From assembly GCA_045652245.1 (NCBI GenBank), contig JAZRTY010000043.1, positions 501 through 64,500 on the forward strand: a stretch of 64,000 nt of DNA, in the 5' to 3' direction. This DNA is from Eubacteriales bacterium (lineage in GTDB: Bacteria; Bacillota; Clostridia; Oscillospirales; CAG-382). A program made the position numbers and the translations under genes. Under the pieces are notes generated by a model that had not been told where the DNA came from, did not search any database, and was given only the letters and a program-made list of their open reading frames with translations. This document shows positions 14,398-55,383 of this stretch, one piece after another. Position 1 is the first letter of the stretch; every line of letters begins with the position of its first letter.

Positions 14398-14416
14398 TTT
14401 AACACACCAACTTTCA

Positions 14417-16254: not shown

Positions 16255-18756
16255 TTATTTCACTGTCTCCATCATATCAAATTTTTGTGCTGCTTCAAGG
16301 TTATCAAAGGCAGCCCATGCGGCAACATCATAATAGAAATCTTCCTGAAGTGGTTTTCCGTTCGCATCAAAGAAGCTCTTGATAGCCACGCCACCTGAGA
16401 GAGAAATTATAATATGGTTTGTATTTACTGCCTGTTCGGGTATATTTTCGTGCGCTACAATTATCTGCTGCCACTTGCCGTCGGCTGTCACAGTCTCCTT
16501 TGAATAAGCATCTCCTGCAGGGCCTAACGAGTTTACAATCGGATTTCCGTCTTTATCATTTGCATGATAGGTTGAAATTTTGATTTTTTTAGGTGTCTTA
16601 TCATTTGTACGGATAAGGAATTTATAATAAGCCTTTCCCGAGGATATATCCCAACGGGGATTACTATATGAGTCAAGAGCGAGCGATGTTGCTTCGCTAT
16701 TGAGTGTCAGGTGTGCGTAAACAATACCCGTTTCCTCGTCTGTCATTTCCTCAACTGTAAGCTTTCTTGCTTCCTGATAGAGATTACCTTCAGCCTGTGT
16801 TCTTACAATAAGGGGAGCATAATTTACCTCAGGCTCTGTTTCCTCTTCAAGTTCTTCTTCGTTTATCCATTCGTTTCCACGTTTTGCGTGGGTAACGGTT
16901 GCTTCTGCAACATTTGCATACGCCCAATGGCTCTTGTCGATATCCGAGAAGCTCATCTGAAGGTCAGACGGCAGATATTCTATATTTGCTTCGTTTCCGA
17001 GGGCTCTATTTACAACCGTTACAACCTCAGCTCTTGTGATTGTATTATCAGGCTTGAAAGAGAATGTTCCGTCACCGTTGTCATATCCATTTACGAGTCC
17101 TGCCTTGGCAGATGCAGTTATAACATTATATCTCGGATGTGTTGAAGCTACATCGGTAAATACAGAGGGCTTTCCTGCATCCTTGAGAAGTCCCATATTA
17201 TATACAAGCTCTACAAATTCTGCTCTTGTGATAGACTGGTCAGGAAGGAATGCTCCACTGTAGGACTTAAGATAGCCAAGGCTCTCAACATATGAAATAT
17301 AATTCTTTCCCCAGTGAGAAGCAACATCCGTAAACGCAGTTTTCTTGTCAGTTGGAACAAGCGCATCGCCGCCTGCACAGAGCCTTGCGACAATCGTAAC
17401 AGCTTCTGCTCTGGTCATTGTTCCGCCCGGTCTGAAGGTACCGTCATCATAGCCCTTGATAAAGGCTGTATATTCCTTTCTTTCTTCACCCTGTGGCAAC
17501 AGTTTCACACCGTTATTTTGTTCGTCACCACTCAGGAAGAAGCCCTTTATCCTGAAATTTGTACCGGGTTTTGTTTCTTCAAATATTATATCTACAATAT
17601 GTTCTCCTGCCGTTTCCTCTTCGAAGAACATTGTATAATAATATGCAATACTACGTGAATCGTAAAGGTCAACCTTTACATATTCCTTACCGTCTACCGA
17701 ATACTTAAAGCCTCCCGACTGGGTATTCATTATGTAAAAAAGTCCACCGTTTTTAGCGTTGTATTTAACTCTCAGAACTGCACCATCTGTCTTTGTGGAA
17801 AGCTCGCTGCCGCTAAGCTTATAATCGGGTGCATTTTGTGAAATTTCATCCTCGGAAAGTTCTCCAACTGTCACCATATAAGCATCTGTCAGAAGGTCTT
17901 TGTTGTAATAGGGGGAATAGGATTTGAAGGTATCCTTGAAAAGTTTTTCGGGCAATTTATATTCTGTTACCTTTGTCGAAAAGCTCTTGTTATCATCAAG
18001 ATTAGGCTTCAGAATGTCATCTCTTAAATACTCAAAATACTTCTGATACCCTGCGTCAATCGGGTGAACATTATCAAGGAAATACTTTTTCCATACAGAA
18101 TCGTAATATGATGAAGGTGCTACTCCACCATTTTCGGCAACGATATCATTCCAGAGCTGCTTTCCCATCCATACAACCGGTATTCCGTAATATGCCGCCA
18201 CTTCTGCGTGTGCCTTGGCGTTGGAATAATCGGTATCTCTTCTTGAAAAGTCGGTAGTTATACATACAACTATATCGCAGGTCGGATTGTTTTCTCTTAC
18301 GTTTCTTATTATTGATTCAAGATAGTAAGCCGATGCGTCATAGTCAAGCACTTCATAAAAATCGTTTATTGCATATTCGATAAAGAGAAGGTCTGCAGGT
18401 GTTTCGGTATCGTACATAAGAGCATAATTTACTCTATATACGTTAAGGTCTGTACCCGTACCACCAAGAGGACCGTATCTTTTCTGTTCAAATTTTACGC
18501 CGTTTGGAACGCCGTAATTTTCGTTCATCCAGTTGCAAGAAAGGTCTCTCCAGCAATTTCCACTCGAGCTCTGTCCCATTCCTTCGGTAACCGAGCCTCC
18601 GAAATATGCAACCGTGATGTCTTCTCCGTTTTTCATTTTTGCGTAAACATTAGGCAAAAGTGAGCCTTTCTCGTCTGCCGACACAGCACTTGTTACAAAC
18701 GCCATACACGACAGAGAAATTACAATTGCAAGTAAGAGGGATAAAAATTTCTTCAT
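16255..18756 (-). CDS. Secreted SGNH/GDSL hydrolase with three SLH domains and a C-terminal module shared with the beta-helix protein
   Basis: Signal peptide (MKKFLSLLLAIVISLSCMAFVTSAVSA). GDSL-type N-terminal block (VAYFGGSVTEG ... NVHP). SLH repeats (FTDVASHWGKNYISYV..., FTDVASTHPRYNVI..., ITRAEVVTVVNRAL). Confidence 0.88.
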   Translation of the reverse strand: MKKFLSLLLAIVISLSCMAFVTSAVSADEKGSLLPNVYAKMKNGEDITVAYFGGSVTEGMGQSSSGNCWRDLSCNWMNENYGVPNGVKFEQKRYGPLGGTGTDLNVYRVNYALMYDTETPADLLFIEYAINDFYEVLDYDASAYYLESIIRNVRENNPTCDIVVCITTDFSRRDTDYSNAKAHAEVAAYYGIPVVWMGKQLWNDIVAENGGVAPSSYYDSVWKKYFLDNVHPIDAGYQKYFEYLRDDILKPNLDDNKSFSTKVTEYKLPEKLFKDTFKSYSPYYNKDLLTDAYMVTVGELSEDEISQNAPDYKLSGSELSTKTDGAVLRVKYNAKNGGLFYIMNTQSGGFKYSVDGKEYVKVDLYDSRSIAYYYTMFFEEETAGEHIVDIIFEETKPGTNFRIKGFFLSGDEQNNGVKLLPQGEERKEYTAFIKGYDDGTFRPGGTMTRAEAVTIVARLCAGGDALVPTDKKTAFTDVASHWGKNYISYVESLGYLKSYSGAFLPDQSITRAEFVELVYNMGLLKDAGKPSVFTDVASTHPRYNVITASAKAGLVNGYDNGDGTFSFKPDNTITRAEVVTVVNRALGNEANIEYLPSDLQMSFSDIDKSHWAYANVAEATVTHAKRGNEWINEEELEEETEPEVNYAPLIVRTQAEGNLYQEARKLTVEEMTDEETGIVYAHLTLNSEATSLALDSYSNPRWDISSGKAYYKFLIRTNDKTPKKIKISTYHANDKDGNPIVNSLGPAGDAYSKETVTADGKWQQIIVAHENIPEQAVNTNHIIISLSGGVAIKSFFDANGKPLQEDFYYDVAAWAAFDNLEAAQKFDMMETVK

Positions 18757-34393: not shown

Positions 34394-34708
34394 TTATTGA
34401 AGCTCAAAAACCTGTGTAAGCAACGGCTGTGCTCCGGTTTTGGGGTCCTTTTCCATTATCAGAATATCCTTCATGTATTCGTCCCATTTTTTTACAACCT
34501 CACTTTCACTCTGAACCTTTGAGGCGTGCTCTATGCTGTCGCACTCGTAATAGCCGAACATTTCGTTCCCTACATTCCAGATTGAGTAGTTGCGTATTCC
34601 TGCATCTTTCAGAACTTTTACCATTTCAGGCCAGATTTCATTGTGACGTTTTACATATTCCTCAAGGGCACCTTCCTTTATAAGGCCCTTCCATGCGTAT
34701 TTTTCCAT
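34394..34708 (-). CDS. rhaM: L-rhamnose mutarotase
   Basis: 104 aa. YAWKGLIKEGALEEYVKRHNEIWPEM ... NYSIW is the RhaM/YiiL signature. Confidence 0.92.
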   Translation of the reverse strand: MEKYAWKGLIKEGALEEYVKRHNEIWPEMVKVLKDAGIRNYSIWNVGNEMFGYYECDSIEHASKVQSESEVVKKWDEYMKDILIMEKDPKTGAQPLLTQVFELQ

Positions 34709-34746: not shown

Positions 34747-35610
34747 TTATTTGTCTTGTTTATTCAGATATTTATTCATATGCGAGGTGTCGAAGAAGCC
34801 ACACTTATGTGCAATTTCAGTTTTTGACATTTCCCCTTTTTCAAGCAGCATCTGTGCCATAGCTATTCTGCAATGCAATACATACTGAAGAGGTGTCATT
34901 TTTACTATTCTCTTGAAATGTCTGTGAAGTGTCGTTCTTGACATATTGGTAATCTGCATAAGGTCATCTATCTGGATATTGGCATCAAGATGATTCTGGA
35001 TATATTCAAGTATTGGAAGTATATCGTAGCTGTCTGTATTTACCGTTTCCTCGTCATCTTCTCCAAGACTTATATGATAACACATATCGGCAATGAATTT
35101 CATTACAAGTATCGTTCTGTAATGTGCGTAATCATCACCCAGCTCCTCAAGCTGGATTATCCTTGCAACTTCCGTTTTTACCTTTGCAAGCTTTTCCTGC
35201 TTCAGATGCAAAAAAAGCCTTTCATCATAAATCTGACGCAGATACGGTTCTACTTTAAACAGAGTTGAATATCCGGGAACACTCTGTAAATCACTTATAT
35301 ATTTCTCAATAAATTCATTTTTTAAGCTGATATGACACACATTCAGCTCCTTGTCACAATAATAACCGTGCAGAACCTTCGGTGGGATTACAAACACCTC
35401 ACCCGAAACCAGAGGAATCGCAATACTGCCGATATAGTGACAGCCCGTACCACTCAAAACGATATTCAATTCATAAAAATCGTGGGAGTGCATTCCCACA
35501 TTGCAGTTTTTGTGTATAGATACAGAGGTCAGATCGTTGCCTCTGTTTTCGAACTGCTCCTTCTCGCCATAAAACGGCACAGAATACAATGGTAACTTTT
35601 CAGGATACAT
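34747..35610 (-). CDS. AraC-family transcriptional regulator (cupin plus HTH), RhaR/RhaS-like
   Basis: Cupin sensor (HSHDFYELNIVLSG...GEVFVIPP). C-terminal HTH (MSRTTLHRHFKRIVKMTPLQYVLHCRIAMAQMLL). Start at MYPEKL (ATG 35610), preceded by AGAGGTG. Confidence 0.88.
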   Translation of the reverse strand: MYPEKLPLYSVPFYGEKEQFENRGNDLTSVSIHKNCNVGMHSHDFYELNIVLSGTGCHYIGSIAIPLVSGEVFVIPPKVLHGYYCDKELNVCHISLKNEFIEKYISDLQSVPGYSTLFKVEPYLRQIYDERLFLHLKQEKLAKVKTEVARIIQLEELGDDYAHYRTILVMKFIADMCYHISLGEDDEETVNTDSYDILPILEYIQNHLDANIQIDDLMQITNMSRTTLHRHFKRIVKMTPLQYVLHCRIAMAQMLLEKGEMSKTEIAHKCGFFDTSHMNKYLNKQDK

Positions 35611-35665
35611 ATTTACACCTCTTTGCAAAAATGGCACAATTTTACCAAAAAAATAACACTATTTT

Positions 35666-35702
35666 ACTTGTATTATAACATCGAATGTGATATAATACAA
35701 GT
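35666..35702. promoter_or_regulatory. Perfect 12-bp inverted repeat carrying two face-to-face TATAAT boxes (divergent AraC and operon promoters)
   Basis: ACTTGTATTATA (35666-35677), 13 nt, TATAATACAAGT (35691-35702). On each strand the arrangement reads TTGTAT, 17 nt, TATAAT. Confidence 0.55.
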
Positions 35703-35767
35703 ATAAAATGTGAATATTTTTCAGAAATTCGCATTTAAAAAACATTTTTATAAAGGAGAAAAGCAAA

Positions 35768-36931
35768 ATGATTAATTTCTTTTTACCAACAAGACTCATT
35801 ATTGGCGAAGGCGCACTTGACAAACTTTCAGAACAGAAGCTTTGTGGAGACAAGGCAATTATTGTTACATACGGAGATTATGTAAAGCAGCTCGGCTATC
35901 TTGACAGAACTATTGAACAGCTCAAGAAAGCAGGAGTTGAAAGCGTAGTTTACGACGGAGTAACTCCCAACCCCACAAAAGACGAAGTACACGAAGGTGC
36001 TGCAATGGCAAGACAGTTCGGTGCAAAGTTCGTAGTAGGACTTGGCGGCGGTAGTGCTATTGACACAGCTAAGGCAGTTGCTATTATGTCAACAAACGAA
36101 GGTGACTTCTGGGATTACGTTCCCGGTGGTACAGGACTTGGCAAAGAATTCCCGAACGATCCCCTTCCTGTTATTGCAATCACAACTACTGCAGGTACAG
36201 GTACAGAAGCTGACCCGTGGATGGTTATTACAAAGACAGAAACAAACGAAAAAATCGGTTCAGGTAACGACAGAACATACCCCTACCTTGCAATCGTTGA
36301 CCCTGCACTTATGGTTACAGTTCCCCCGAGACTTACAGCTTTTCAGGGCTTTGATGCGCTCTTCCATTCAACAGAAGGCTATCTTAACAAGAACGCAAAT
36401 GACCTGAGCGACATTTTTGCTCTTAAGGCAATTGAGCTTGTAGGTAAGAGCCTTGTTAATGCAGTTAAGAACGGTAAGGATATGCAGGCTCGTACAGATA
36501 TTGCTCTTGCTAATACTCTTTCAGGTATCAATGAACACGCTGCAGGCACTATTTCTGCACACAGTCTCGCACACGCAATGAGCGCAGTTCACTCAAATAT
36601 GGAACACGGTGCTTCTCTTGTTGCAACAAGTATTGCTTATTACACAATGCTTGCACAGTCAGGACAGTGCGACGAAAAGATGATTAAAATGGCAAAGCTT
36701 ATCGGCAAGCCTGATGCCAAGAGTGCATCTGACTTTGTTGATGCTCTTGCAGCTCTTATTTCTGCTTGTGGCGTTGATGATGTTAAGCTCAGCGACTATG
36801 GCTTCAAGTACGAAGAACTTGAAATGGTAGCAAAGCACGCAAGATATGTACAGGGTGGTCTTTACTTCGTTGACCCGATCACTGTTACAGACGAGGCTAT
36901 GCTTGAAGTTCTTCAGAAGTCTTACAAGTAA
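35768..36931 (+). CDS. Iron-containing alcohol dehydrogenase (lactaldehyde reductase / FucO-like)
   Basis: GLGGGSAIDTAKA, metal-binding His residues (HSLAHAMSAVH), 387 aa. Confidence 0.92.
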   Translation: MINFFLPTRLIIGEGALDKLSEQKLCGDKAIIVTYGDYVKQLGYLDRTIEQLKKAGVESVVYDGVTPNPTKDEVHEGAAMARQFGAKFVVGLGGGSAIDTAKAVAIMSTNEGDFWDYVPGGTGLGKEFPNDPLPVIAITTTAGTGTEADPWMVITKTETNEKIGSGNDRTYPYLAIVDPALMVTVPPRLTAFQGFDALFHSTEGYLNKNANDLSDIFALKAIELVGKSLVNAVKNGKDMQARTDIALANTLSGINEHAAGTISAHSLAHAMSAVHSNMEHGASLVATSIAYYTMLAQSGQCDEKMIKMAKLIGKPDAKSASDFVDALAALISACGVDDVKLSDYGFKYEELEMVAKHARYVQGGLYFVDPITVTDEAMLEVLQKSYK

Positions 36932-36965
36932 TATAAAGTTTTAACACACTGAAAAGGAAAAAATT

Positions 36966-37961
36966 ATGTCTAATAAAATTCACTTCGAACCACTCCGTCC
37001 CGAAAGATCTGCCGGAGTAAAGAGCAAGTACGAATTCACACACGGTACAGACTCTGTTTGTGTTTACGATATTGAAACTCTTGATTTTATAAAGGAAATA
37101 CCGGTAGGTCCGCATCCTGACTGTCACGCAACAAGCGTTGACGGAAAGTTCTTATATATTGCTTGTCACGACGGTCTTTACTGTATTTCACAGGAAACCC
37201 TTGAAGTAGCAAAGATTTTTAAAGCAGAATGGCTGTATGCTACAAACGTGTTGCCTGACGGAAATACGCTTTTTGCTCACGACCAGGCAGGTGGTGTTGT
37301 AATCCTCAAGGACATTACCGATATGGATAAAATCCACATCCACAAGCGTATTCAGGTTATCCCTAATGGAAAGTACAGATGCGAAATCGGTGGCAAGGGT
37401 AACTTTACTGCAGACGGAAGATATTACATCTGTGCAAGTTGGCTTCAGTCTGTAATTTATCGTTTTGATTTGGAAAACGATTTCAGCTTTGAAACCTTTG
37501 TTCCGTTCAACGCAGACCTGAAATGCAGTGATGACTTAGTCCTCAACGCAGACCGTACAAAGGCATATACTGCTTGCTGGAGAAAAGACGTAAATTCACA
37601 CGTTGCAGTTATTGATATGGCAAAACAAGAGGTTATAAAGCTTATCCCGACAGGACATGGCAACTGTGGTCTTACAATGACAGGCGACGAGCGTTATGTT
37701 ATCGGCTCGAATGACGGTGATGATACAATTTCTGTTATTGACACCCATACAGACGAGGTTGTTCGTACACTTTCAGCCCACGAAGGTTTTGAAAAGCTCG
37801 GAATTACAGGTTATATTCAGGGCATTTCAGCAGGAACAGACGATTCAATCTATGTTTACGGCTGTTCAGGAAACGGTGCGCTTGTAAGATTCTCGGATAT
37901 TCTGGGAGATGCAAAGGTAGATATTTCATATCCCGGTGGTAAATATTCGGGAAAGGCATAA
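36966..37961 (+). CDS. Beta-propeller protein (YVTN / 7-bladed lactonase-like repeats), cytoplasmic
   Basis: Repeating ~45-aa units of the type VGPHPDCHATSVDGKFLYIACHDG..., LPDGNTLFAHDQAGG..., TADGRYYICASW..., NADRTKAYTAC..., TGDERYVIGSNDGDDTISVID. No signal peptide. Confidence 0.7.
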   Translation: MSNKIHFEPLRPERSAGVKSKYEFTHGTDSVCVYDIETLDFIKEIPVGPHPDCHATSVDGKFLYIACHDGLYCISQETLEVAKIFKAEWLYATNVLPDGNTLFAHDQAGGVVILKDITDMDKIHIHKRIQVIPNGKYRCEIGGKGNFTADGRYYICASWLQSVIYRFDLENDFSFETFVPFNADLKCSDDLVLNADRTKAYTACWRKDVNSHVAVIDMAKQEVIKLIPTGHGNCGLTMTGDERYVIGSNDGDDTISVIDTHTDEVVRTLSAHEGFEKLGITGYIQGISAGTDDSIYVYGCSGNGALVRFSDILGDAKVDISYPGGKYSGKA

Positions 37962-37988
37962 TTATACACAGTTTATCAGGAGGTATTT

Positions 37989-40196
37989 ATGACAATAGAT
38001 ACTTTAAAAAATGCTATAAAGGTTGAGCCCTTTGCCATTGGCTTTCTTGAAGCCGAAGGAAAAAGCATTGAATACAAAGTAGCAAACGGTATGCTTTGCT
38101 ACGCAAAACACAGAGATATCGAAATTCTTGACGGTCAGATGTTTGCAGGAAACTTCACACTTTCTGAGTTCAAACCTGCCAACACCTGTATTGTAACCTA
38201 TGACCACGGAAGAGGTATCCATTCTTCTTCAATAAAGCTTGAGGAAAATATAAAGAAATATCCCGAACTTGAAGCAGAGCTTCGTGAAATTCACGAAAGA
38301 ATGCTCAAGGTTTCTACCACGTCTGTAATTCACTCAAAAACAACTGAGCATCACAACGATATTCTGGAATCTATGGCAGGCTGGGGCGGCGGTGTACGCA
38401 ACTGGGCAGGTGGTCATTCAAATCCCGACTATATGCTTCACGAGGGTACTATTGCTCTTCGTAAGAAGGTAGAAAAGTTCCGAAAGCTCAATCCCGGCAA
38501 GGATGAATTCTACGATGCACTCGTTCTTTGTATTGACGCTATGGATATTACCGCACAGAGATACAGAGAGTATGCTCTTGAAATGGCAGAAAAGTCAGAG
38601 GGTACAGAAAAGGAAAGATTCACAAGAATCGCAAATGCTCTTGAGTGGGTACCTATGAACAAACCCCGTGACTTCTTCGAGGCTTGTCAGAGTTATTGGC
38701 TTGTATTCCTTATGGACGGAAGTGACTCTCCCGGAAACTTTGACAGAGTAATGATTGACTATTACAGAATGAATAGTGAAGAAGACAGACGCGCTTGTCT
38801 TGAGGGACTCTGGCAGGAATTCAGAAGATACAGAGCATGGAATCTTTGCGTTGGCGGAAGTGACGAAAACTGGAACGACACTTCAAACGAGCTTACATAT
38901 GCAATTCTCGAAACTGCAAAGAAATACAAGTACAATACTCCGAACCTGACACTGCGAGTTCACAGAAATACTCCCGACGACCTCTGGCGTCTTGCTGCAG
39001 AAACAATTGCTACCGGTATCGGTATGCCTGCAATTTACAACGACGAATGTGTATGTCCTGCACTTGAGAGCTTCGGAATTACTCCCGAACATTCTCACAA
39101 GTACTGTATGAACGGCTGTAATCAGATTGATATTTACGGCATCAGCCATATGGGACTTGAAGACGGTGAAGTTTGTCTTGCAAAGTGTCTCGAATTCGTA
39201 CTGACAAACGGTAAGTGTGCAATTTCCGGAAAAGAAGTCGGACTTCGCACAGGCGAAATGTGGGAATACACCTCTTTCGAGGAATTCTTCGCAGCATACA
39301 AGGAACAGGTTGAGTATATAGCAGCTGACTGTGTCAGAAGTGCTAACCTTTCTCAGCGTATGATGGCAAAGTACTGTCCTAATCCACACCGTTCACTTCT
39401 TTATGAAGGATGTCTTGAAAAGGGACTTGATATGAAGAATGGTGGACCGATTTACGGTCATGCACAGATTCTTATCGAAGGTCTTGCTGATGCAGTTGAC
39501 TCTTTGGCATCTATCAAGCATTTTGTTTTTGACGAAAAGAAGTATACTCTGACTCAGGTTGCAAAGGCACTTTCCGAAAACTACGAAAATGACCCCGAAA
39601 TGTATCTTGATTTCAAGAATTACGACAAATTCGGTAACGACCACGATGAAACAAACGAAATTTACCGTGAAGTAGTTAATCATTTTAACAGTTACCTTCG
39701 TAACTTCAAGAGTTTCAGAGGCGGTATTTTCGGTGGCGGTTGCAGTACATTCCAGAGAGCAGCAGCCTACGGAATTATGGTTGGTGCTCTGCCTAACGGC
39801 AAAAAGAAGGGCGAATCACTCCTTGCCGACAGTATCGCTGCAACTCCGGGTTGCGATGTAAACGGACCGACAGCACTTATAAAGTCTGTACTTTCTGCTG
39901 ACCAGAAGAATTGTCTTAGCGGAAATGTTATGCAGATGAAGTTTACCAAGAATCTCTTTAATACAGAAAAAGGAATTGCTGCGTTTATCGCTCTTGCAAA
40001 GACTTATTTTGCAGGTGGTGCCGGTCAGCAGCTATCAATCAACGTTCTCTCAAGAGAGGAGCTACTTGACGCAAAGGCGCATCCCGAAAACTACAAGGAT
40101 CTTATTGTAAGAGTCGGTGGTTACAGCGACTACTTTGTAAGACTTCCCGAGGGACTTCGTGATAATGTTATTGCAAGAACCGAAATCGGTTTATAA
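37989..40196 (+). CDS. Glycyl radical enzyme (PFL2/dehydratase-like clade) with an atypical GCNQ Cys loop
   Basis: C-terminal glycyl radical motif IVRVGGYSDYFVRLPEGLRDNVIARTE (Gly711, nt 40119-40121). Cys loop KYCMNGCNQI (Cys377, nt 39117-39119). GALPNGKKKGESLAD matches the GATPDGR region. Confidence 0.92.
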   Translation: MTIDTLKNAIKVEPFAIGFLEAEGKSIEYKVANGMLCYAKHRDIEILDGQMFAGNFTLSEFKPANTCIVTYDHGRGIHSSSIKLEENIKKYPELEAELREIHERMLKVSTTSVIHSKTTEHHNDILESMAGWGGGVRNWAGGHSNPDYMLHEGTIALRKKVEKFRKLNPGKDEFYDALVLCIDAMDITAQRYREYALEMAEKSEGTEKERFTRIANALEWVPMNKPRDFFEACQSYWLVFLMDGSDSPGNFDRVMIDYYRMNSEEDRRACLEGLWQEFRRYRAWNLCVGGSDENWNDTSNELTYAILETAKKYKYNTPNLTLRVHRNTPDDLWRLAAETIATGIGMPAIYNDECVCPALESFGITPEHSHKYCMNGCNQIDIYGISHMGLEDGEVCLAKCLEFVLTNGKCAISGKEVGLRTGEMWEYTSFEEFFAAYKEQVEYIAADCVRSANLSQRMMAKYCPNPHRSLLYEGCLEKGLDMKNGGPIYGHAQILIEGLADAVDSLASIKHFVFDEKKYTLTQVAKALSENYENDPEMYLDFKNYDKFGNDHDETNEIYREVVNHFNSYLRNFKSFRGGIFGGGCSTFQRAAAYGIMVGALPNGKKKGESLLADSIAATPGCDVNGPTALIKSVLSADQKNCLSGNVMQMKFTKNLFNTEKGIAAFIALAKTYFAGGAGQQLSINVLSREELLDAKAHPENYKDLIVRVGGYSDYFVRLPEGLRDNVIARTEIGL

Positions 40197-40232
40197 GCTT
40201 TTTACAAAAAATAATAAAATAATAATAAAATT

Positions 40233-40270
40233 GAGGCTGGTGCGAATTTTCGCATCAGCCTTGATTTTTT
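40233..40270. terminator. Bidirectional terminator between the GRE and apgM genes
   Basis: aggctggtgcg-aatttt-cgcatcagcct followed by tgatttttt. Confidence 0.75.
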
Positions 40271-46035: not shown

Positions 46036-47130
46036 ATGAAAAAACTCACTTGTGCATTTTTAGCATTTTTGCTCATTCCCTTCTTTCTTACCTCTTGCTT
46101 TGGAAAGGACAACACCGACACAGGTACAGACACCGGCACAGGTACAGGTGGCGAGATTTCTGTATTCTATTATACCTTCAGTGATACCTACATTTCAAAT
46201 GTCCGTTCAAATCTTCGAAGAATTATGCAAGAGCAAAATCTTAAATATAACGACTACGACGGAAACGGAAATCAGACAACCCAGACCGAGCAGGTCGGAA
46301 CAGCTATTGCCAAAGGGGCTTCGGCTCTTGTGGTAAATATCGTTGACACAGGCTCAGATGATGCTGCCATTAACATTATAGGACTTGCAAGAGATAAAAA
46401 TATTCCTGTTATATTCTTTAACCGTTCTGTTCAGGAAAGTGTTGTTTCCTCATATGAAAACTGTATTTTTGTAGGTACAGACTACGAAGAAGCAGGTATT
46501 ATGCAGGGAGAAATGATTGGTAATTATCTTGTAGAAAACTTCGATAGTGTCGACATTAACGGCGACGGGGAAATCAGTTATGTTATGTTTAAAGGACAGG
46601 AGGGTAACCTTGAGGCAATTGCAAGAACAGAACTTTCTGTTGAGTACTGTAACAAGGTACTGTCCGAAAACAATTTGAATCTTCTCCGGTTTTATGACGA
46701 GTCAAACCCCAACAAGTATCTTGTCGACCAGGACGGACTCTGGTCCTCTGCCGCTGCCAACAACTATATGAGCACACTTCTTGCAAGATTCAGCGAAGCA
46801 AACAATAATATGGTAGAGCTTGTTATTGCAAACAACGACGAAATGGCGCTCGGTGCTATTGCAGCGCTCCAGGGTGCAGGCTACAATGACGGAAGTGGAA
46901 GAAACATTCCCGTATTCGGAGTAGATGCGACAGAAGCTGCAAGAAGTGCAATCGAAAACGGCACAATGACAGGAACAATAAAGCAGGATGCAGAAAACAT
47001 GGCACTAACTATTGAAAAGGTCACCACAAACATGATAAATGGCGAAAATAAATTCACAGGCATTGACGAAAATCTCATTGTCGGCACCTGGAGAATAAAC
47101 ATCCCTTATGCACCTTATATAGGGGAATAA
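46036..47130 (+). CDS. mglB: Galactose/glucose ABC transporter substrate-binding lipoprotein
   Basis: Lipoprotein signal with an LTSC lipobox, a TG-rich linker and a periplasmic-binding-protein type I fold. First gene of an mglBAC-like operon. Confidence 0.85.
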   Translation: MKKLTCAFLAFLLIPFFLTSCFGKDNTDTGTDTGTGTGGEISVFYYTFSDTYISNVRSNLRRIMQEQNLKYNDYDGNGNQTTQTEQVGTAIAKGASALVVNIVDTGSDDAAINIIGLARDKNIPVIFFNRSVQESVVSSYENCIFVGTDYEEAGIMQGEMIGNYLVENFDSVDINGDGEISYVMFKGQEGNLEAIARTELSVEYCNKVLSENNLNLLRFYDESNPNKYLVDQDGLWSSAAANNYMSTLLARFSEANNNMVELVIANNDEMALGAIAALQGAGYNDGSGRNIPVFGVDATEAARSAIENGTMTGTIKQDAENMALTIEKVTTNMINGENKFTGIDENLIVGTWRINIPYAPYIGE

Positions 47131-47185
47131 CTCTTTTCGGTATATCGCAGGATATACCGATATACTTACAAGGTGGAGGCAAAAT

Positions 47186-48688
47186 ATGGATAATTCAATT
47201 CTTTTACAGATGAACAATATGTGCAAAAGCTTTCCCGGGGTGGTGGCTCTTGACAATGTAAGTCTTACTGTCCGCCGAGGTACGGTTCATGCTCTTATGG
47301 GGGAAAACGGTGCGGGTAAATCAACTCTTATGAAGTGCCTTTTCGGAGTTTATACCCCGGATAGCGGTGAGGTTTTTCTTGAGGGTAAAAAAGTTTCCTT
47401 TAAAAGCTCAAAGGAGGCTCTTGAAAATGGCGTTGCTATGGTGCACCAGGAGCTGAATCAAGCGCTGAAAAGAAGCGTAATGGATAATATGTGGCTTGGC
47501 AGATTTCCACGCATCTCAAGGTTTTTACCGCTTACCAGCGAAAAGAAAATGTACGAGATGACAAAAAAATTCTTCCACAAACTCGGAATCGAACAAAATC
47601 CCCGTACAATAATGCAGGAGCTGCCGGTATCAAAGCGTCAGATGGTGGAAATAGCAAAGGCTGTTTCCTACAGTTCTAAGGTGATAGTATTTGATGAGCC
47701 TACCTCTTCCCTGAACGAAAAAGAGGTTGAGCATCTTTTCGAAATTATAAATATGCTGCGAAAAAATGGCTGTGGTATTATTTATATTTCGCACAAGATG
47801 GAGGAGATACTCCGGATTTCTGACGATATAACGGTAATGCGTGACGGAAAGCATATTACCACCAAAAGGGCGTCAGAACTTACAATGGAAGAAATAATCC
47901 GTCTTATGGTAGGAAGGGAACTTTCAGGCAGATATCCTGCAAAGGAAAACAAGGCAGGTGACATCCTTCTTGAAGTTAAAAATTTAAGTGCAAGCTACAA
48001 CAAGCTGCGTGATGTAAGCTTTCATGTCAGAAGTGGTGAAATACTCGGCATTTCAGGTCTTGACGGAGCAGGAAGAACAGAGCTTCTTGAAGCAATCTTC
48101 GGGCTGTCGACAAGAAAAAGTGGTGAAATTTTTTTGCGTGGAAAAAAGGTAAGCAACAAAGCGCCGGGAAGGTCTATAAAGAATGGCTTTGCGCTTCTCA
48201 CCGAAGAACGGCGTGCAAGCGGAATTTTCGGGATACTGAATATCCGTGATAACTGCACAATTTCGAGCCTTGAAAAGCACAAGGGATTTTTATTTTTAAG
48301 TAACAAAAAGCTCCGGCAAAGTACTGACAAGTGCATAAAGCAATTAAGAGTCAAAACCCCGTCACAGGAAACAAAAATCCGTTCCCTTTCGGGTGGTAAT
48401 CAGCAAAAGGTAATTTTCGGAAGATGGCTTTTGACTTCCCCCACAGTTCTGCTTCTTGACGAACCGACACGTGGAATAGATGTCGGTGCCAAATATGAAA
48501 TTTATCAGTTGATAATAGACCTTGCAAAAGAGGGAAAAGCTGTAATTATGGTATCCTCCGAAATGCCGGAGCTGCTGGGTGTTTGTGACAGAATTCTTGT
48601 AATGTCAGGCGGACGCCTTGCAGGCGAAGTTGATGCCGCAAGTGCTACACAGGAGGAAATTATGGCTCTTGCTTCAAAATATGTATAA
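47186..48688 (+). CDS. mglA: Galactose/methyl-galactoside ABC transporter ATP-binding protein (duplicated ATPase)
   Basis: Long colinear similarity to MglA (SFPGVVALDNVSL..., HALMGENGAGKSTLMKCLFG, ALENGVAMVHQELN...SVMDNMWLGR, ISHKMEEI). Confidence 0.92.
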   Translation: MDNSILLQMNNMCKSFPGVVALDNVSLTVRRGTVHALMGENGAGKSTLMKCLFGVYTPDSGEVFLEGKKVSFKSSKEALENGVAMVHQELNQALKRSVMDNMWLGRFPRISRFLPLTSEKKMYEMTKKFFHKLGIEQNPRTIMQELPVSKRQMVEIAKAVSYSSKVIVFDEPTSSLNEKEVEHLFEIINMLRKNGCGIIYISHKMEEILRISDDITVMRDGKHITTKRASELTMEEIIRLMVGRELSGRYPAKENKAGDILLEVKNLSASYNKLRDVSFHVRSGEILGISGLDGAGRTELLEAIFGLSTRKSGEIFLRGKKVSNKAPGRSIKNGFALLTEERRASGIFGILNIRDNCTISSLEKHKGFLFLSNKKLRQSTDKCIKQLRVKTPSQETKIRSLSGGNQQKVIFGRWLLTSPTVLLLDEPTRGIDVGAKYEIYQLIIDLAKEGKAVIMVSSEMPELLGVCDRILVMSGGRLAGEVDAASATQEEIMALASKYV

Positions 48689-48720
48689 AATACAAAGGCA
48701 GGTAGAAAGGATATAAGCAT

Positions 48721-49785
48721 ATGCCGGAAAACAATTCGAATAAAAGAATCGGTTATTCAAAAGAGAAGTATCGTGATACGGTACGAAAAACAACCGACCT
48801 TCTGTTTAACAATGCAATGTATATTGTAATTATACTTGCTATCATTTTCATCGCAATACGGGTGCCTGCATTTCTGTCGGTTTCCTCGATTGTAAATATA
48901 ATATCACTGACAGCGGCAAAGCTGCCCATAGCCCTTGGCATTGGGGGAGCAATAGTTCTGTCGGGTACCGATATCTCAGCAGGTCGTACCGTAGGTCTTA
49001 CTGCCTGTATTGCAGCATCGCTTCTTCAGCTTGCTTCGTACCCTAAAAAAATCTTTCCGAATCTTCCCGAAATGCCCCTTTGGGTAGCATTTCTGGCTGT
49101 TGTTGCAGTCGGCGCCATAATCGGACTTGTAAACGGATTTTTCGTTGCAAAATTCAAGCTTCACCCCTTTATTGTGACACTTTCAACACAGCTTATTGTT
49201 TTCGGCTCGGTGCTTATGTACCTGATGATCGGCAACAACAACGGACAAACTCTGTCGGGACTTTCTCCTGCGTACACAGATTTTGTAAAGGGTACACTTT
49301 TCAGGATTTCCGGTGTGGCAGTTCCAAGGTATGTGCTGTATTCGGCAATAATAACTGCTATTATGTGGGTTATCTGGAACAAAACTGCCTTCGGTAAAAA
49401 TATGTTTGCAGTAGGCTCGAATGAAGAGGCGGCAAATGTATCGGGGGTAAATGTTTTTCGTACTGTTATTCTCGTGTTTGTACTTGCCGGTGTTATGTAT
49501 GGAATCACAGGCTTTATTGAGGGTGCAAGAATTGCCTCCTGCTCTGCAAATACAGGGCTTAACTATGAAAGTGACGCCATTGCCGCCTGCGTTATAGGTG
49601 GGGTTTCCTTTGTCGGGGGTACGGGAAAAATCAGCGGTATTGTAATAGGGGTATTCCTTTTGCAGATTATCTTTGTGGGTCTTAACTTCCTGTCGGTTTC
49701 GGCAAATATGCTCTATATAATAAAAGGTCTTATTATCCTTATTGCCTGCGCTATTGATATGAGAAAGTATCTTATGAAAAGGTAA
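48721..49785 (+). CDS. mglC: Galactoside ABC transporter permease
   Basis: Polytopic BPD_transp_2-type permease following mglA. Confidence 0.88.
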   Translation: MPENNSNKRIGYSKEKYRDTVRKTTDLLFNNAMYIVIILAIIFIAIRVPAFLSVSSIVNIISLTAAKLPIALGIGGAIVLSGTDISAGRTVGLTACIAASLLQLASYPKKIFPNLPEMPLWVAFLAVVAVGAIIGLVNGFFVAKFKLHPFIVTLSTQLIVFGSVLMYLMIGNNNGQTLSGLSPAYTDFVKGTLFRISGVAVPRYVLYSAIITAIMWVIWNKTAFGKNMFAVGSNEEAANVSGVNVFRTVILVFVLAGVMYGITGFIEGARIASCSANTGLNYESDAIAACVIGGVSFVGGTGKISGIVIGVFLLQIIFVGLNFLSVSANMLYIIKGLIILIACAIDMRKYLMKR

Positions 49786-49977: not shown

Positions 49978-50012
49978 TACTTGAAAACATAATTTGAGTG
50001 GAGGTTTGTATT

Positions 50013-50165
50013 ATGAAACACATCAAGACAATAAATACTCGCAATCTTTGCGAATCTGCAAAGAAGGGCGGCTGTGGCGAATGCCAGACTTCTTGTCAGT
50101 CTGCTTGCAAGACAAGCTGCGGTATTGCTAACCAGAAATGCGAAAACACAAAGGAAAGCAAGTAA
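50013..50165 (+). CDS. scfA: SCIFF (six-cysteines-in-forty-five) ranthipeptide precursor
   Basis: Below the ORF-track cutoff. Manual translation gives MKHIKTINTRNLCESAKKGGCGECQTSCQSACKTSCGIANQKCENTKESK, with the family core GGCGECQTSCQSACKTSC. RBS GGAGG. The cognate maturase lies downstream. Confidence 0.92.
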   Translation: MKHIKTINTRNLCESAKKGGCGECQTSCQSACKTSCGIANQKCENTKESK

Positions 50166-50177
50166 TTTCTATAAAAA

Positions 50178-50206
50178 GTGCCGCCAGATTAATGGCGGCT
50201 TTTTTC
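50178..50206 (+). terminator. Hairpin plus T-run between scfA and scfB (attenuating terminator)
   Basis: gccgcca-gattaa-tggcggc followed by TTTTTT. Confidence 0.75.
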
Positions 50207-50239
50207 TTGTAAATCGTCCACGAAAGGATACATATATAA

Positions 50240-51622
50240 ATGATACATCAATATAAGCTTGGAGATTATAATATCGTTCTTGACGTATGTTCGGGTGCTG
50301 TTCACGCAGTTGACGAGGTAGCATACGATATTATCTCGCACTTTGAAGATAAAAGCCGTGACGAAATAATCCGTGAAATTTGCGAAAAATACAAGAACGC
50401 AGAGAATATCACAAAAGAAGATATAGAGGAATGCTACGAGCAGGTCTGTGAACTTCGTGACAGTGGTGCGCTTTTTGCGCCTGACAATTATGAGCCTATG
50501 GCAGGTGAACTTAAGAAAAAAACAAGTGGTGTTATAAAGGCGCTTTGTCTGCATATTGCACACACCTGCAACCTTAACTGCTCCTACTGCTTTGCAAGTC
50601 AGGGAAAATATCACGGTGACAGAGCCGTTATGAGCTATGAGGTCGGAAAGCAGGCGTTTGATTTCCTTATTGCAAATTCAGGAACTCGGAAAAATCTTGA
50701 GGTCGATTTCTTCGGTGGCGAACCACTTATGAATTTTGACGTTGTAAAAAAGCTTGTAGCGTATGCCAGAAGTGTTGAAAAACAACACGGAAAAAATTTC
50801 AGATTTACCCTTACCACAAACGGAATGCTGATTGATGATGACGTAATTGATTTTGCAAACCGTGAGATGAGCAACGTCGTACTCAGCCTTGACGGAAGAC
50901 GTGAAATTCACGACAGATACCGAGTTGATTATAACGGCAACGGAAGCTGGGAAAAGATTGTTCCGAAATTCCAGAAGTTAGTCAAGGCTCGTGGTGGCAA
51001 AAACTACTATATGAGAGGTACCTTTACCCATGCAAATCCTGACTTTTTAGAGGATATAAAGGTGATGCTCGACTTAGGGTTTAACGAGCTTAGTATGGAG
51101 CCTGTTGTATGTGCTCCGGGTGACCAAGCAGAGCTTACTGCTACCGATATGGAGATTGTTAAGAAACAGTACGAAGACCTTGCATTCTTAATGCTCGAAA
51201 AAGACAGAGAAGGAAAGCCGTTCACCTTCTACCACTATATGATTGACCTTGAAGGTGGCCCCTGCATTTACAAGAGAATTTCAGGTTGTGGCTCGGGAAC
51301 TGAATATATGGCAGTTACCCCCTGGGGTGACCTTTACCCTTGTCATCAGTTTGTAGGCGACGAAAAATTCAGGCTCGGAGACATCTACAATGGTGTTACA
51401 AATACTGAAATACAGGGTGAATTTGAATGCTGTAATGTATATGCACACCCTGAGTGTCGCAATTGCTGGGCAAGACTCTACTGCTCGGGTGGATGTGCTG
51501 CAAATGCATATCACAGTACAGGCTCGGTTACGGGTGTTTACAAAAGTGGATGTGAACTGTTCAAAAAGAGAATGGAATGTGCAATAATGGTTGCAGTAGA
51601 CAGGGCACTCAGAGAAGAATGA
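50240..51622 (+). CDS. scfB: Radical SAM/SPASM thioether-forming SCIFF maturase
   Basis: CNLNCSYC (CX3CX2C) and C-terminal SPASM cysteines (CGSG...C...CRNCWARLYCSGGC). The N-terminus MIHQYKLGDYNIVLDVCSGAVHAVDE is typical of the family. Confidence 0.93.
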   Translation: MIHQYKLGDYNIVLDVCSGAVHAVDEVAYDIISHFEDKSRDEIIREICEKYKNAENITKEDIEECYEQVCELRDSGALFAPDNYEPMAGELKKKTSGVIKALCLHIAHTCNLNCSYCFASQGKYHGDRAVMSYEVGKQAFDFLIANSGTRKNLEVDFFGGEPLMNFDVVKKLVAYARSVEKQHGKNFRFTLTTNGMLIDDDVIDFANREMSNVVLSLDGRREIHDRYRVDYNGNGSWEKIVPKFQKLVKARGGKNYYMRGTFTHANPDFLEDIKVMLDLGFNELSMEPVVCAPGDQAELTATDMEIVKKQYEDLAFLMLEKDREGKPFTFYHYMIDLEGGPCIYKRISGCGSGTEYMAVTPWGDLYPCHQFVGDEKFRLGDIYNGVTNTEIQGEFECCNVYAHPECRNCWARLYCSGGCAANAYHSTGSVTGVYKSGCELFKKRMECAIMVAVDRALREE

Positions 51623-53037: not shown

Positions 53038-55383
53038 TTATTTATTAAGATATGAAATAACCGATACGGGAATCAGCCAGAAAAGCTGGATAATAATGCA
53101 GAAGACTACATTGAGTGCGGAATTTGTAAGCAAAAGGACTGCAGAAAGCACGATTCCCAAAATTGCGCTTATCATTTTAATTATATTGTTAATCTTCACG
53201 TTTCTTCCCGTTCTCTCGCAAAGAATGAGCATTTCAAGGAAATTATGTACACTGCCAAGTGCGATAACGCCCGAGCTTACCTTTTCACATACAACCGGTA
53301 TATCCTTTGCGCTCTCGCCCTTTATAACGCTGAGTGCATAATTTGCTCTTTCAAGGCAACCGAACACAAGGTCGTTATTGACACAAGGGTCGATACTGTT
53401 TATGCCGACACAAAGATTTGCCTCCTGCAGCTCGATAAGTGTCTTTTCAAAATTGGGATTTATCGAATATTTAATATAGAATTTTGAAATTATCCTGCCG
53501 TCACGCACCATAAACAGAATACTTCCGTGTGACTGTTCGAAGGCTGCGTCGACACTATCCGAGATAACTCTTATTCCGTTTGTGTTAAGGTAAGACGAGC
53601 TTGCAAGAGTAACACTTCTGCCGTCAACACTGACCTCGATAGCATCCTGATAAACCCTGAGAAGCTCTACCTTTTCGGTGTTGATTTCAACATCAATCAT
53701 TTTTGCAAAGATTTTTGAAAGAGGTCCACCGACCTTTGTATATATTCTCGACATGAGAACCACTGCTTCGTCAAGTGCTACATCGGCGTATGTCTTGATG
53801 CTTGATACTCTTACGTCCTTTGGTAAAAATACCTCTGTATCCTCGAAGGCTACAACCGACAGTCCCTTATATTCTTCACTTGCGTTCTGACCTATAAGTG
53901 CTGAGCTGATAAGCTTTCCTTTTGTTGCCGCAATATATTTCGGAAGCGCTGAAACAAGGTATGTGTTTATAGGAAGTGAGGAAATAAATATAATTACAGC
54001 ACTTGTAATTCCGGTATACACGTCATTTGTGGCAATCGCCATAAAAAGTCCTACCACCAAAGACGCCACAAGTACAACAGCACTAAGAAGTCCAAGCTTC
54101 TTTTCGTTGTCGGGACGTCTTGAATTCCTTTCAACAAATCCGTCGTAAACCTCGCCTCGTTTTACCGTGATTACCTTTGCATTTTCCTTATCAATTCTAT
54201 TTTCAAAGGGTGCTGCCTCACGAGAATCAACCGGCAGCTCAAATGCACCGAATTTATGTGAGGGTGAGGAGGCAATTCTGAAGGAAGTATCATCTGCACT
54301 TGCACGAAGGTAATTGTAAAGTGCAAGCATGAAAAGTGCAAGACCACCGGCACTGCAGAACAGTCTTATTTCAGAACCAGCCAAAACTCCGAATATCGCA
54401 GAGCATACTGCCTGAACAGTACATGCAAGCGTTACGCAAAGTGCGCAGGATGCCGGCGAAAATCGCTTGTCAAGCATATTCTTAAATCCCTGCGCAAGGC
54501 TTTCAATCAGGAACATGGCGCTAAAGAGCATAACCTGAAGGCAAACCATGGAATAAACAACCGGTATTGCAGGAGTTAATATATCAAGGCAAGGCAGGTT
54601 GGCAATAGGGGCAAGCTCTATGTAAAGACCGATTACAAGAAAAACAGCACAGGAAAGAAGTACCGACATCGCTTTGAGCTTCTTTGTGTAGAATTTATTT
54701 ATTCCTTCACCCACAGCCCCCTTATCTGACATATCTATCTCAGAAATAGCGCCAAGGCCACTTGCAATTTTCTTGCTTTCTTTGCTTTGTTTTCTTTCTT
54801 TCTTTTCTTTTTTTATCTTTTTTCTGTTCTCGTCCCTTGCTTCTTCGCTTTCAGGCTCCGAAAATCCGAACAATGTGCCAAGATAGTCGTCAACATTCGT
54901 CTCTTCCTCTGTTTCCTCCTGAGAAGCAGGCTTTTCAGCTTCCGGCTCTTCAAACATTTCAAAACCGATACTGTCATCCTGTGCTTCCTTCTTAGGACTT
55001 TCAAAGATTTTTACATCATCCACGTCTTCCTCGACAAACGGCTCTTCCTTTTCCTCTGTACTCTCGGAAGCTACAGCCTCATTCTCCTCTGTCACAATAT
55101 CGGTCTGGGCGACGATTACCGTGTCCTCTTCTGTTCCCTCGCCATCGTCTGCCTTATCTGCGTCTGAAGGAGATTCTGTATCACCCAGAATACTGTCAAG
55201 CCAGGCAAGGTCATTTTCTTCTGTCTGGAAAATCTCGTCAAATTTCTTTTTCAGCTCATCAATTTTTTCAACGCCGTTATCCGGCTTTTTTTCTGCTTGT
55301 TCTCCCTCGTAGCTTCTTATGATATTGTCAAGAGACGGACTTTTGTTGCCGTCCATTTGTGATGCGTCACGGTTTGTCTGCAT
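53038..55383 (-). CDS. Membrane protein with a degenerate P1B-type ATPase scaffold and a long acidic N-terminal region
   Basis: 781 aa. About 220 aa of D/E-rich low complexity plus a K-rich patch. The TM and cytoplasmic domains then align by eye with heavy-metal P-type ATPases, but DKTGT reads EDTEV, CPC reads SLP, TGDN reads NSID and GDGxND reads GSVHNF. Confidence 0.75.
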   Translation of the reverse strand: MQTNRDASQMDGNKSPSLDNIIRSYEGEQAEKKPDNGVEKIDELKKKFDEIFQTEENDLAWLDSILGDTESPSDADKADDGEGTEEDTVIVAQTDIVTEENEAVASESTEEKEEPFVEEDVDDVKIFESPKKEAQDDSIGFEMFEEPEAEKPASQEETEEETNVDDYLGTLFGFSEPESEEARDENRKKIKKEKKERKQSKESKKIASGLGAISEIDMSDKGAVGEGINKFYTKKLKAMSVLLSCAVFLVIGLYIELAPIANLPCLDILTPAIPVVYSMVCLQVMLFSAMFLIESLAQGFKNMLDKRFSPASCALCVTLACTVQAVCSAIFGVLAGSEIRLFCSAGGLALFMLALYNYLRASADDTSFRIASSPSHKFGAFELPVDSREAAPFENRIDKENAKVITVKRGEVYDGFVERNSRRPDNEKKLGLLSAVVLVASLVVGLFMAIATNDVYTGITSAVIIFISSLPINTYLVSALPKYIAATKGKLISSALIGQNASEEYKGLSVVAFEDTEVFLPKDVRVSSIKTYADVALDEAVVLMSRIYTKVGGPLSKIFAKMIDVEINTEKVELLRVYQDAIEVSVDGRSVTLASSSYLNTNGIRVISDSVDAAFEQSHGSILFMVRDGRIISKFYIKYSINPNFEKTLIELQEANLCVGINSIDPCVNNDLVFGCLERANYALSVIKGESAKDIPVVCEKVSSGVIALGSVHNFLEMLILCERTGRNVKINNIIKMISAILGIVLSAVLLLTNSALNVVFCIIIQLFWLIPVSVISYLNK

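Follow-up and report, generated by a model that had tools for sequence, protein, structure and literature searches.

A predicted family of glycyl radical enzymes with an altered catalytic cysteine loop in gut and rumen Clostridia

A 64-kb stretch of DNA (hereafter the window) from contig JAZRTY010000043.1 of a Eubacteriales bacterium encodes, at 37989-40196 of the + strand, a 735-residue glycyl radical enzyme (GRE) that, judging from sequence comparison, belongs to an uncharacterised family whose catalytic loop is altered and which is widespread among Clostridia of gut and rumen. I call the family GCNQ or, in full, 'GCNQ-x-D' after its cysteine loop, in which Gln stands two residues after the cysteine (Cys+2), where the Cys-X-Glu (CXE) motif has Glu. 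The gene is the last of a three-gene operon that also encodes an iron-containing alcohol dehydrogenase (Fe-ADH) and a beta-propeller, and an earlier note, made by a model from the letters of this DNA, had singled it out as an orphan GRE. The reading I favour, with about even confidence, is that the GRE is an active, trans-activated enzyme of the eliminase/isomerase type that acts on a hydroxylated substrate derived from rhamnose or pectin, with His143 as acid, Asp381 as base and the Fe-ADH as reductase of a carbonyl product.

Results

The window GRE is predicted to be intact and structurally complete. It matches the Pfam families PFL-like (PF02901; residues 22-595, E 2e-111) and Gly_radical (PF01228; E 3e-25, 89 bits), and its AlphaFold2 (AF2) model (pLDDT 88, pTM 0.89) has the ten-stranded GRE barrel. 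Foldseek matched the model to 64 GRE chains in the Protein Data Bank (PDB) at E <= 1e-3, and the 50 listed all had E <= 1e-35; the top matches were glycerol dehydratase (GD; 1r8w) and propanediol dehydratase (PD; 5i2g), at a query TM-score (TMq) of 0.89 and 26-28% identity, and identity to any solved GRE is at most 28%. By sequence, the best PDB match (HMMER, about 300 bits) is 5fav, the E491Q mutant of CutC. Every NCBIfam cut-off lies above the score of the window GRE: 357 bits against 678 for TIGR01774, 343 against 1100 for HypD, 330 against 1050 for CutC and 315 against 1000 for HpsG. This agrees with the earlier note, which could not place the protein in a characterised family, and no characterised GRE of high identity and with the same loop was found in the PDB, NCBIfam, Foldseek or literature searches; nor is a GRE with a GCNQ loop or a propeller partner described in the 2026 review, bioRxiv or PMC literature searched. 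The note had also estimated that the protein is about 100 residues shorter than PD-type enzymes. It is indeed shorter, the actual gap being about 50-110 residues when compared with the solved GD and PD chains (787-843 residues).

The significance of the loop is best seen against what is known of other GREs. According to a June 2026 review, all six C-O eliminases and all three isomerases characterised retain CXE, the C-S lyases have the same glutamate, bound to substrate, the sole essential Gln mentioned is Gln484 of phenylacetate decarboxylase (PAD), and whole GRE clades remain without an assigned function (PMC13450708). HMMER pairs CMNGCNQ of the window GRE with CLMGCVE(P) of CutC, and Cys433-Val-Glu435 of GD aligns with Cys377-Asn-Gln379. 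The positions that the note had given for Cys377, the GCNQ loop and Gly711 were confirmed codon by codon: Cys377 is TGT at 39117-39119, aligns with Cys489 of CutC and is invariant; Gln379 is CAG at 39123-39125; and the radical site Gly711 is GGT at 40119-40121 (all + strand, as are the other GRE codons given below). The Glu-to-Gln and Val-to-Asn changes, which the note had read by eye, are likewise real and conserved, and Gln at Cys+2 is found in 115 of the 120 closest homologues (49-100% identical to the window GRE and 671-1098 residues long, nearly all 708-743). The Cys loop and the strand that follows it (39105-39170) read C373-M-N-G-C377-N378-Q379-I-D381 ... E391-D392-G-E394, and the glycyl radical loop IVRVGGYSDY, which carries the 89-bit Gly_radical match, spans 40107-40136, with RVGG[YF]S kept in the family. 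A Glu-bearing Cys loop elsewhere in the GRE was considered and rejected: the AF2 hairpin, the HMMER alignments to CutC, GD and PD and a MAFFT alignment that included 150 representatives agree on a single loop, at residues 373-382.

Several acidic or proton-donating positions are also conserved. His143 (38415-38417) corresponds to GD His164 and CutC Asp216, the proposed general acid for the leaving group; CutC GGGD pairs with AGGH of the window GRE, and the alignment to 1r8w begins at 142/163. His143 is invariant in the family and His is found at this position in 117 of the 150 representatives; P0345, an 848-residue representative with a CutC-like C-V-E-x-Q loop, has Asp there. Asp246 (38724-38726), in a DSPG loop, is an invariant acid where GD and PD have Ile (SISP), His281-Ser282-Ile283 of GD aligning with Gly244-[Ile/Ser]245-Asp246. 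GD Asp447 aligns with Glu391, also invariant, and Asp381, Asp392 and Glu394 are further invariant acids of the family, in which the stretches NGCNQID and SHMGLEDGE do not vary. In the AF2 model, DSSP assigns strands to residues 372-375 and 379-382, with Cys377, the predicted thiyl residue, in the hairpin between them, and because residues 379-382 form a beta-strand in the model, the side chains of Gln379 and Asp381 would point to the same side. The order of residues in the loop is C-V-E-P-Q in CutC, C-T-E-I-Q in the nearest Glu-bearing sister clades and C-N-Q-I-D/E in the GCNQ family. In such an alignment the acid/amide pair looks swapped between Cys+2 and Cys+4, and the carboxylate may have been relocated from Cys+2 to Cys+4 instead of simply lost.

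The GCNQ family is discrete: an exhaustive search of representatives clustered at 50% identity returned 11 clusters at 450-729 bits and then a gap down to 374 bits. A scan of species-representative genomes gave 444 matching stretches, and the 80 loci retrieved (labelled L001 etc.; the 50%-identity representatives are labelled P0102 etc.) all come from Clostridia of the gut or rumen, for the most part Oscillospiraceae and Acutalibacteraceae. Among the 120 homologues, C[ML]NGCNQ[IF] is found in 113 and GCNQ[IF][DE] in 115, an Asp or Glu stands at Cys+4 in 115, and 113 keep the glycyl radical motif of the RVGG[YF]S type. When the 150 best 50%-identity representatives were aligned and placed on a neighbour-joining tree, the family fell within a superclade whose hallmarks are His143, Asp246 and a Gly loop of the form R[VI]GG[YF]S. 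Its GREs are short, with a median length of 739 residues compared with 798 in the RVAG eliminase-like group. Asp246 co-occurs with the RVGG Gly loop throughout this superclade, and Cys+2 alternates between Glu and Gln: there are CTE groups, a CSQ/CGQ group (about 15 clusters) and a CAQ lineage (P0254) that is sister to the CNQ family. CxQ is found in 32 of the 150 representatives, in several clades; 29 of these are long, and Asp246 and RVGG are present in 25 of the 29. Thus, CxQ is unique neither to the window GRE nor to its family. No characterised member was found in the superclade.

Some individual members deserve mention. Representatives P0388 (RVAAYS, Ala) and P0356 (RVATYT, Thr) have the radical glycine replaced and are candidates, going by their motifs, for the aminoacyl radical enzymes described in 2024. 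The operon that holds the CAQ sister clade (P0254; L114/L115, 7001-9220) encodes two proteins of the URO-D family, a DUF6785 membrane protein, GH42-like and GH2 proteins, a ROK kinase and a SIS protein, and no activase. In L118 (P0252, of a CTE clade), DUF6785 is again encoded on the strand of the GRE, about 1.3 kb upstream of it. P0102 (1098 residues) is a natural fusion in which a WbsX-like domain (PF14307) precedes a GCNQ-family GRE, and in L083 (4538-7955) a separate WbsX gene lies directly upstream of the GRE. The fusion together with this adjacency suggests that WbsX and the GRE share one substrate. No literature on PF14307 (WbsX) as a hydrolase was found.

The earlier note called the GRE an orphan with no activase nearby, which is true of the window but not of the family. 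tblastn with the family's own activase found none in the 64 kb (best E = 2.1), and the only open reading frame (ORF) in the window with a radical-SAM-like CxxxCxxC motif is the SCIFF maturase (50240-51622; TIGR03974, 748 bits), as the note had also said. The SCIFF system is itself complete (49998-51622, + strand), with a Cys-rich precursor (CESAKKGGCGECQTSCQSACKTSCGIANQKC) encoded in the ORF 49998-50165 ahead of the maturase. The family has a dedicated activase with Radical_SAM and ferredoxin-like clusters (TIGR02494, 332 bits against a cut-off of 174), which lies directly downstream of the GRE and adjoins 46 of 86 family GRE genes, or 43 of the 79 that are followed by 1.2 kb or more of sequence. 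It is missing, as judged by tblastn or gene calls, in all nine loci of the window's subclade, the negative loci being the window, L001, L002, L004, L074, L119, L120/121 and L122/123. Since it is missing in every subclade locus and present beside 46 of the 86 family genes, the orphan state is a conserved property of the subclade, and neither an assembly accident nor a property of the family. In the window, moreover, the GRE stop and the convergent gene are just 77 nt apart, so that there is no space for an activase remnant downstream. Four loci (L049, L050, L040 and L072) carry two or three paralogous GCNQ GREs and fewer activases, and L001 (14111-14371) is among the genomes with close-set paralogous GCNQ GREs. 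This excess of GRE paralogues over activases argues for activation in trans.

The three genes of the operon were found exactly as the earlier note had listed them. The Fe-ADH (35768-36931; 387 residues), the propeller (36966-37961; 331 residues) and the GRE are encoded in one direction on the + strand, 34 and 27 nt apart, and each is preceded by a Shine-Dalgarno sequence. Just after the GRE stop lies a strong intrinsic terminator (40227-40268, + strand), made up of a 19-bp stem that includes 7 GC pairs and a T-run behind it, which also faces the convergent gene apgM (apgM-type phosphoglycerate mutase); with the next gene convergent, the transcription unit therefore comprises the Fe-ADH, propeller and GRE genes alone. 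Upstream, the AT-rich divergent intergenic region (35638-35767; 130 nt) holds the Shine-Dalgarno sequence AAAGGAGAA before the Fe-ADH start and is the presumed, regulated promoter region, its promoter-like matches being no better than shuffled background. Pfam bears out the divergent AraC-type regulator and L-rhamnose mutarotase that the note had described. The regulator (34747-35637, - strand, taking the ORF as listed with a putative GTG start at 35637) has AraC_binding and HTH_18 domains, a cupin sensor and a helix-turn-helix, and its best NCBIfam match is RhaS (83.7 bits against a cut-off of 288). Downstream of the regulator gene lies that for the RhaM family protein (34394-34708, - strand; 104 residues), a clear Pfam match (rhaM, E 5e-25, 88 bits) that scores 67.6 bits against a cut-off of 99.6 for TIGR02625. 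No rhaA, rhaB or rhaD was seen among the annotated ORFs of the window, a subset of its ORFs having been scanned, and no second GRE was found in the 64 kb. The note's statement that shell genes are absent from the window is borne out by tblastn with PduA-like and EutN-like queries, which found no homologue of microcompartment shell proteins there, the sole match being a 17-residue chance match within the GRE itself; shell domains are also absent among the annotated neighbour proteins of the homologue loci.

Across the family, only two kinds of partner recur broadly beside the GRE: the activase, and a carbonyl reductase in which one fold can stand in for another. Such a reductase, found in the cluster of 32 of the 86 GRE genes, is a DkgA-type aldo-keto reductase (AKR), a short-chain dehydrogenase/reductase (SDR) or, in the window and L119 only, an Fe-ADH. 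The propeller lies beside 12 of the 86, where the gene order is either IclR-propeller-SDR-GRE-activase or propeller-GRE with a divergent AraC gene. The second layout is the module of the window's subclade, in which [rhaM]-AraC is divergent from [Fe-ADH]-propeller-GRE (L001, L002, L004, L074, L119, L120 and L122), with identities to the window proteins of 46-60% for AraC, 56-70% for the propeller and 48-69% for the GRE. AraC orthologues are divergent from propeller-GRE in L001, L002, L004, L119, L120 and L122, and rhaM is 81% identical and in the same position in L001, L002 and L119. L119 has the full layout of the window, with an Fe-ADH 67% identical in the same position, and its propeller is a remnant (9564-9896) that retains residues 1-110 only (60% identity), the rest being deleted while the Fe-ADH and GRE are intact. 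The propeller/GRE adjacency, whose lack in related genomes the note had named as a refutation, holds in the window's subclade, being intact in eight of the nine loci and a remnant in the ninth. The trio with the Fe-ADH is not a feature of the family, as the counts for the propeller and Fe-ADH make plain. Because the rhaM/AraC context is kept in the closest relatives, the deoxy-sugar link of the GRE, which the note had drawn from that context, is reasonable.

Among the flanking genes, those for the use of pectin or deoxy-sugars recur. In L004 a GH28 gene directly precedes that of the propeller; proteins with the pectate-lyase fold are encoded in L122 and L081, GH78 rhamnosidases in about five loci, and a GH88/105-type hydrolase, glucuronate isomerase (UxaC) and UxaA/UxaB-like proteins in L119. 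GH127-like, GH3, GH42 and GH2 genes are also among the flanking genes of family loci, and an FSA-type aldolase lies directly upstream of the GRE in L007 and L013. A Pfam census of the operon partners gave heterogeneous carbohydrate genes, each found in at most three members.

Two labels given in the earlier note to the partner proteins proved weak. The Fe-ADH (Pfam Fe-ADH, 178 bits, and ADH_Fe_C, 114 bits; GGGS NAD motif at residue 93) had been called FucO-like, which is loose: FucO scores 140 bits against 229 for the best PDB match, 5yvm, and 177 for DhaT, and the protein falls below all NCBIfam equivalog cut-offs, including that for lactaldehyde reductase (TIGR02638, 206 bits against 523; NF007911, 193 against 537). 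It is a group III Fe-ADH of undefined specificity. The propeller had been called lactonase-type, for which the profile, PDB and fold searches give no support, there being no lactonase among its Pfam matches, its 22 PDB sequence matches or its top 50 fold matches. Its Pfam matches are weak (YNCE/Cytochrom_D1), the TIGR02276 YVTN repeat scores 38.5 bits against a cut-off of 27.85, and profile searches return the YVTN S-layer domain and hydrazine synthase beta. The AF2 model (pLDDT 95.2) is that of a seven-bladed YVTN-type propeller, an architecture shared with the archaeal S-layer protein (1l0q), hydrazine synthase beta and NirF/NirN; however, Foldseek returned only generic seven-bladed propellers, with TM-scores of at most 0.69 and at most 18% identity, and no function is shared with these proteins. 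A lactonase, a GH145/PL42-type rhamnosidase or lyase, or another known enzyme was therefore rejected.

The propeller family is itself uncharacterised and highly conserved. No hydrophobic, signal-peptide-like stretch is seen by eye at the N-terminus, and the family, predicted to be cytoplasmic, is 55-72% identical across phyla, including Armatimonadota, in glycan-utilisation loci. The residues C32, C53-H54, H105-D106, C234 and C300 are invariant. Propellers without any GRE occur in sediment metagenomes and in Armatimonadota, where they lie beside pectate-lyase-fold and GH-like genes, and the propeller is best regarded as a separate uncharacterised protein of a carbohydrate pathway, not as a GRE subunit. 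In propeller loci outside Clostridia (L081, L094, L103 and L111), an unannotated protein of about 533 residues with a faint GH127 middle-domain signal repeatedly follows and is a possible conserved partner.

Discussion

What does this enzyme do? From homology, conserved residues and context I infer that it is active and that the operon is probably functional and catabolic, under the control of the divergent AraC-type regulator paired with RhaM and, presumably, of rhamnose. A radical-SAM activase encoded elsewhere in the genome would convert the GRE to its radical form, and the mechanism would be closest to that of the C-O-cleaving eliminases and isomerases (GD, PD, YbiW/PflD). His143 would give a proton to the leaving oxygen; the base role of the CXE glutamate would pass to another conserved acid, the best candidate being Asp381 at Cys+4; and Gln379 would only hydrogen-bond the substrate. 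The NAD(P)H enzyme encoded with the GRE, Fe-ADH here and AKR or SDR in other genomes, would then reduce the carbonyl product, and the propeller would be an accessory enzyme or binding protein for a carbohydrate step. This agrees with the retention, as invariant residues, of His143 (GD His164) and Glu391 (GD Asp447), and with the nearest folds and sequences, those of the eliminases GD, PD and CutC. Also in its favour are the acid at Cys+4, the dedicated activase of sister loci, the carbonyl reductase of three unrelated folds, the conserved module of the subclade, the pectin or deoxy-sugar neighbours and the single operon closed by its own terminator.

Among these eliminases, CutC (5fau) gives the best PDB sequence score, and its E491Q mutant (5fav) mimics the window Gln at Cys+2. 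It differs in having Asp216 for His143 and C-V-E-P-Q for C-N-Q-I-D, and the window has no choline-utilisation or microcompartment context. YbiW/PflD, which open the ring of 1,5-anhydrohexitol-6-phosphate ('anhydroglycolysis'), are likewise GREs that process sugars, and aldolases downstream cleave their product (PMC13450708), and the FSA-type aldolase upstream of the GRE in L007 and L013, with carbonyl reductases nearby, recalls this arrangement. These enzymes differ from the window GRE in that they keep CXE (PMC13450708), identity is 23-24%, and the window operon is without a kinase, phosphotransferase system or aldolase.

Several points weigh against the mechanism proposed above. The CXE glutamate, missing here, hydrogen-bonds the substrate in every solved case (PMC13450708). 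The suggested role of Asp381 depends on strand geometry in a predicted model, the CSQ/CGQ clades of the same superclade have no acid at Cys+4, and the acid-rich pocket (D246, D381, E391, D392, E394) would also suit a cationic or metal-bound substrate. In the 64 kb searched, the activase of the source genome is unseen. The rhaM gene is found in only four of the nine subclade loci, and outside the subclade the neighbourhoods are heterogeneous, so that no single substrate emerges. Finally, the E491Q mutant of CutC is reportedly inactive.

It is possible, if rather doubtful, that the reaction class is new or at least not that of an eliminase: a decarboxylation or other hydrogen-atom transfer, a radical epimerisation, the cleavage of an ether or glycoside, or C-C cleavage of an unusual pectic sugar. 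Gln379 would then be present because deprotonation of a hydroxyl is unneeded. One argument for this is the family-wide replacement of a CXE Glu that is kept in every characterised eliminase and isomerase (PMC13450708). PAD (PhdB) offers a partial precedent: alone among the characterised GREs it has a Gln (Gln484) that is essential for catalysis, and it is proposed to work by hydrogen-atom transfer without a known acid (PMC13450708). The parallel is drawn from the text of the review, Gln484 would have to stand at Cys+2, and PAD is a decarboxylase with an arylacetate substrate, while the context in the window is one of carbohydrate and not of aromatic amino-acid fermentation. A new class would also be consistent with the low identity to characterised GREs (at most 28%), with a superclade that is wholly uncharacterised and variable at Cys+1 and Cys+2, with the fusion of a WbsX domain to a GRE and the adjacent WbsX gene in L083, and with the position of the sister CAQ clade beside URO-D-family proteins and glycosidases. 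Against it, the dehydratase acid His143 and the Asp447-equivalent Glu391 are conserved, the best structure and sequence matches are dehydratases, and the recurrent adjoining carbonyl reductase fits an aldehyde or ketone product. One form of this idea, which I hold only tentatively, is that the GRE performs radical chemistry new to GREs directly on a 6-deoxyhexose or other unusual pectin-derived sugar, with the acid at Cys+4 and with the propeller as a new cytoplasmic partner enzyme; dehydration or ring-opening of L-rhamnose or a derivative, or cleavage of a sugar ether or glycoside, would be the candidate reactions.

Another reading, an unlikely one, makes the GRE no more than a divergent dehydratase of (S)-1,2-propanediol (or glycerol) that serves the fermentation of rhamnose without a microcompartment. 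On this route rhamnose would yield lactaldehyde, reduced to propanediol by the Fe-ADH, dehydrated to propionaldehyde by the GRE and reduced again, by the Fe-ADH, to propanol. PD of Roseburia inulinivorans (5i2g; 9rco) and GD of Clostridium butyricum (1r8w) are the top fold matches (TMq 0.88-0.89), and they share with the window GRE the barrel, the positions of the Gly and Cys loops, the histidine (His164 in GD, His143 here), an acid at the Asp447 position (Glu391) and an alcohol dehydrogenase partner. Control by rhaM-AraC would suit this route, as would the kinship of the Fe-ADH with DhaT and FucO, and since any aldehyde reductase would serve, it explains the interchange of AKR, SDR and Fe-ADH. 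However, GCVE is GCNQ in the window GRE (Glu440/435 to Gln), the Gly loop is RVGG and not the RVAG (with Ala) of canonical eliminase-like representatives, Gly stands at the His281 position, and the change of Ile283 to Asp246, together with several invariant pocket acids, makes a poor fit to a small apolar diol. Identity to PD and GD is only 26-28%, TIGR01774 is far below its cut-off, and the window GRE has no microcompartment and is some 50-110 residues shorter. Rhamnose isomerase, kinase and aldolase are also missing among the annotated ORFs of the window (the subset scanned).

Very improbable is a GRE that is silent or decaying after loss of its activase, or one that needs the propeller as an obligate partner, either in place of an activase or as an aid to activation: the activase is missing in the 64 kb and in eight related subclade loci and the propeller has invariant Cys and His residues, but the GRE ORF is intact with every family-invariant residue present, the activase-less layout is common to genomes whose GREs are 48-69% identical and, being shared at only that identity, seems to have persisted under selection, and the propeller has no radical-SAM motif, occurs free of GREs in Armatimonadota and sediment metagenomes, accompanies only 12 of the 86 GRE genes and is a 110-residue remnant in L119, where the GRE is intact.

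The trans-activated eliminase or isomerase thus stays the preferred reading. GREs of the gut affect the host through the formation of trimethylamine, p-cresol and skatole, the breakdown of hydroxyproline and the release of sulfite. The GCNQ family, in breaking the CXE rule yet retaining the acid His, would be a test case, set up by nature, for the source of the base in radical elimination, and it may carry out new anaerobic chemistry on sugars of the plant cell wall. If the chemistry is indeed new, the family would give a first way into the whole superclade of short 'RVGG' GREs, still uncharacterised, of the Clostridia of gut and rumen, and would represent a microcompartment-free radical route in pectin fermentation. 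The handles for experiment are the activase of a sister locus, the likely inducer (rhamnose or pectin), the residues H143, D246, Q379, D381 and E391, and the propeller family.

Other features of the window

Five large ORFs on the - strand (12091-14481, 14417-16174, 16255-18756, 53038-55383 and 60466-63942), encoding proteins of 585-1158 residues, have no NCBIfam match at E <= 1e-10, and the 781-residue protein among them has no Pfam match either. A sugar ABC transporter of the ribose/rhamnose type is encoded at 46036-49785 (+ strand), with a Peripla_BP_4 binding protein, a 500-residue double ATPase and a BPD_transp_2 permease. It lies 6 kb downstream of the GRE operon, with unrelated genes between, and may be functionally linked to it.

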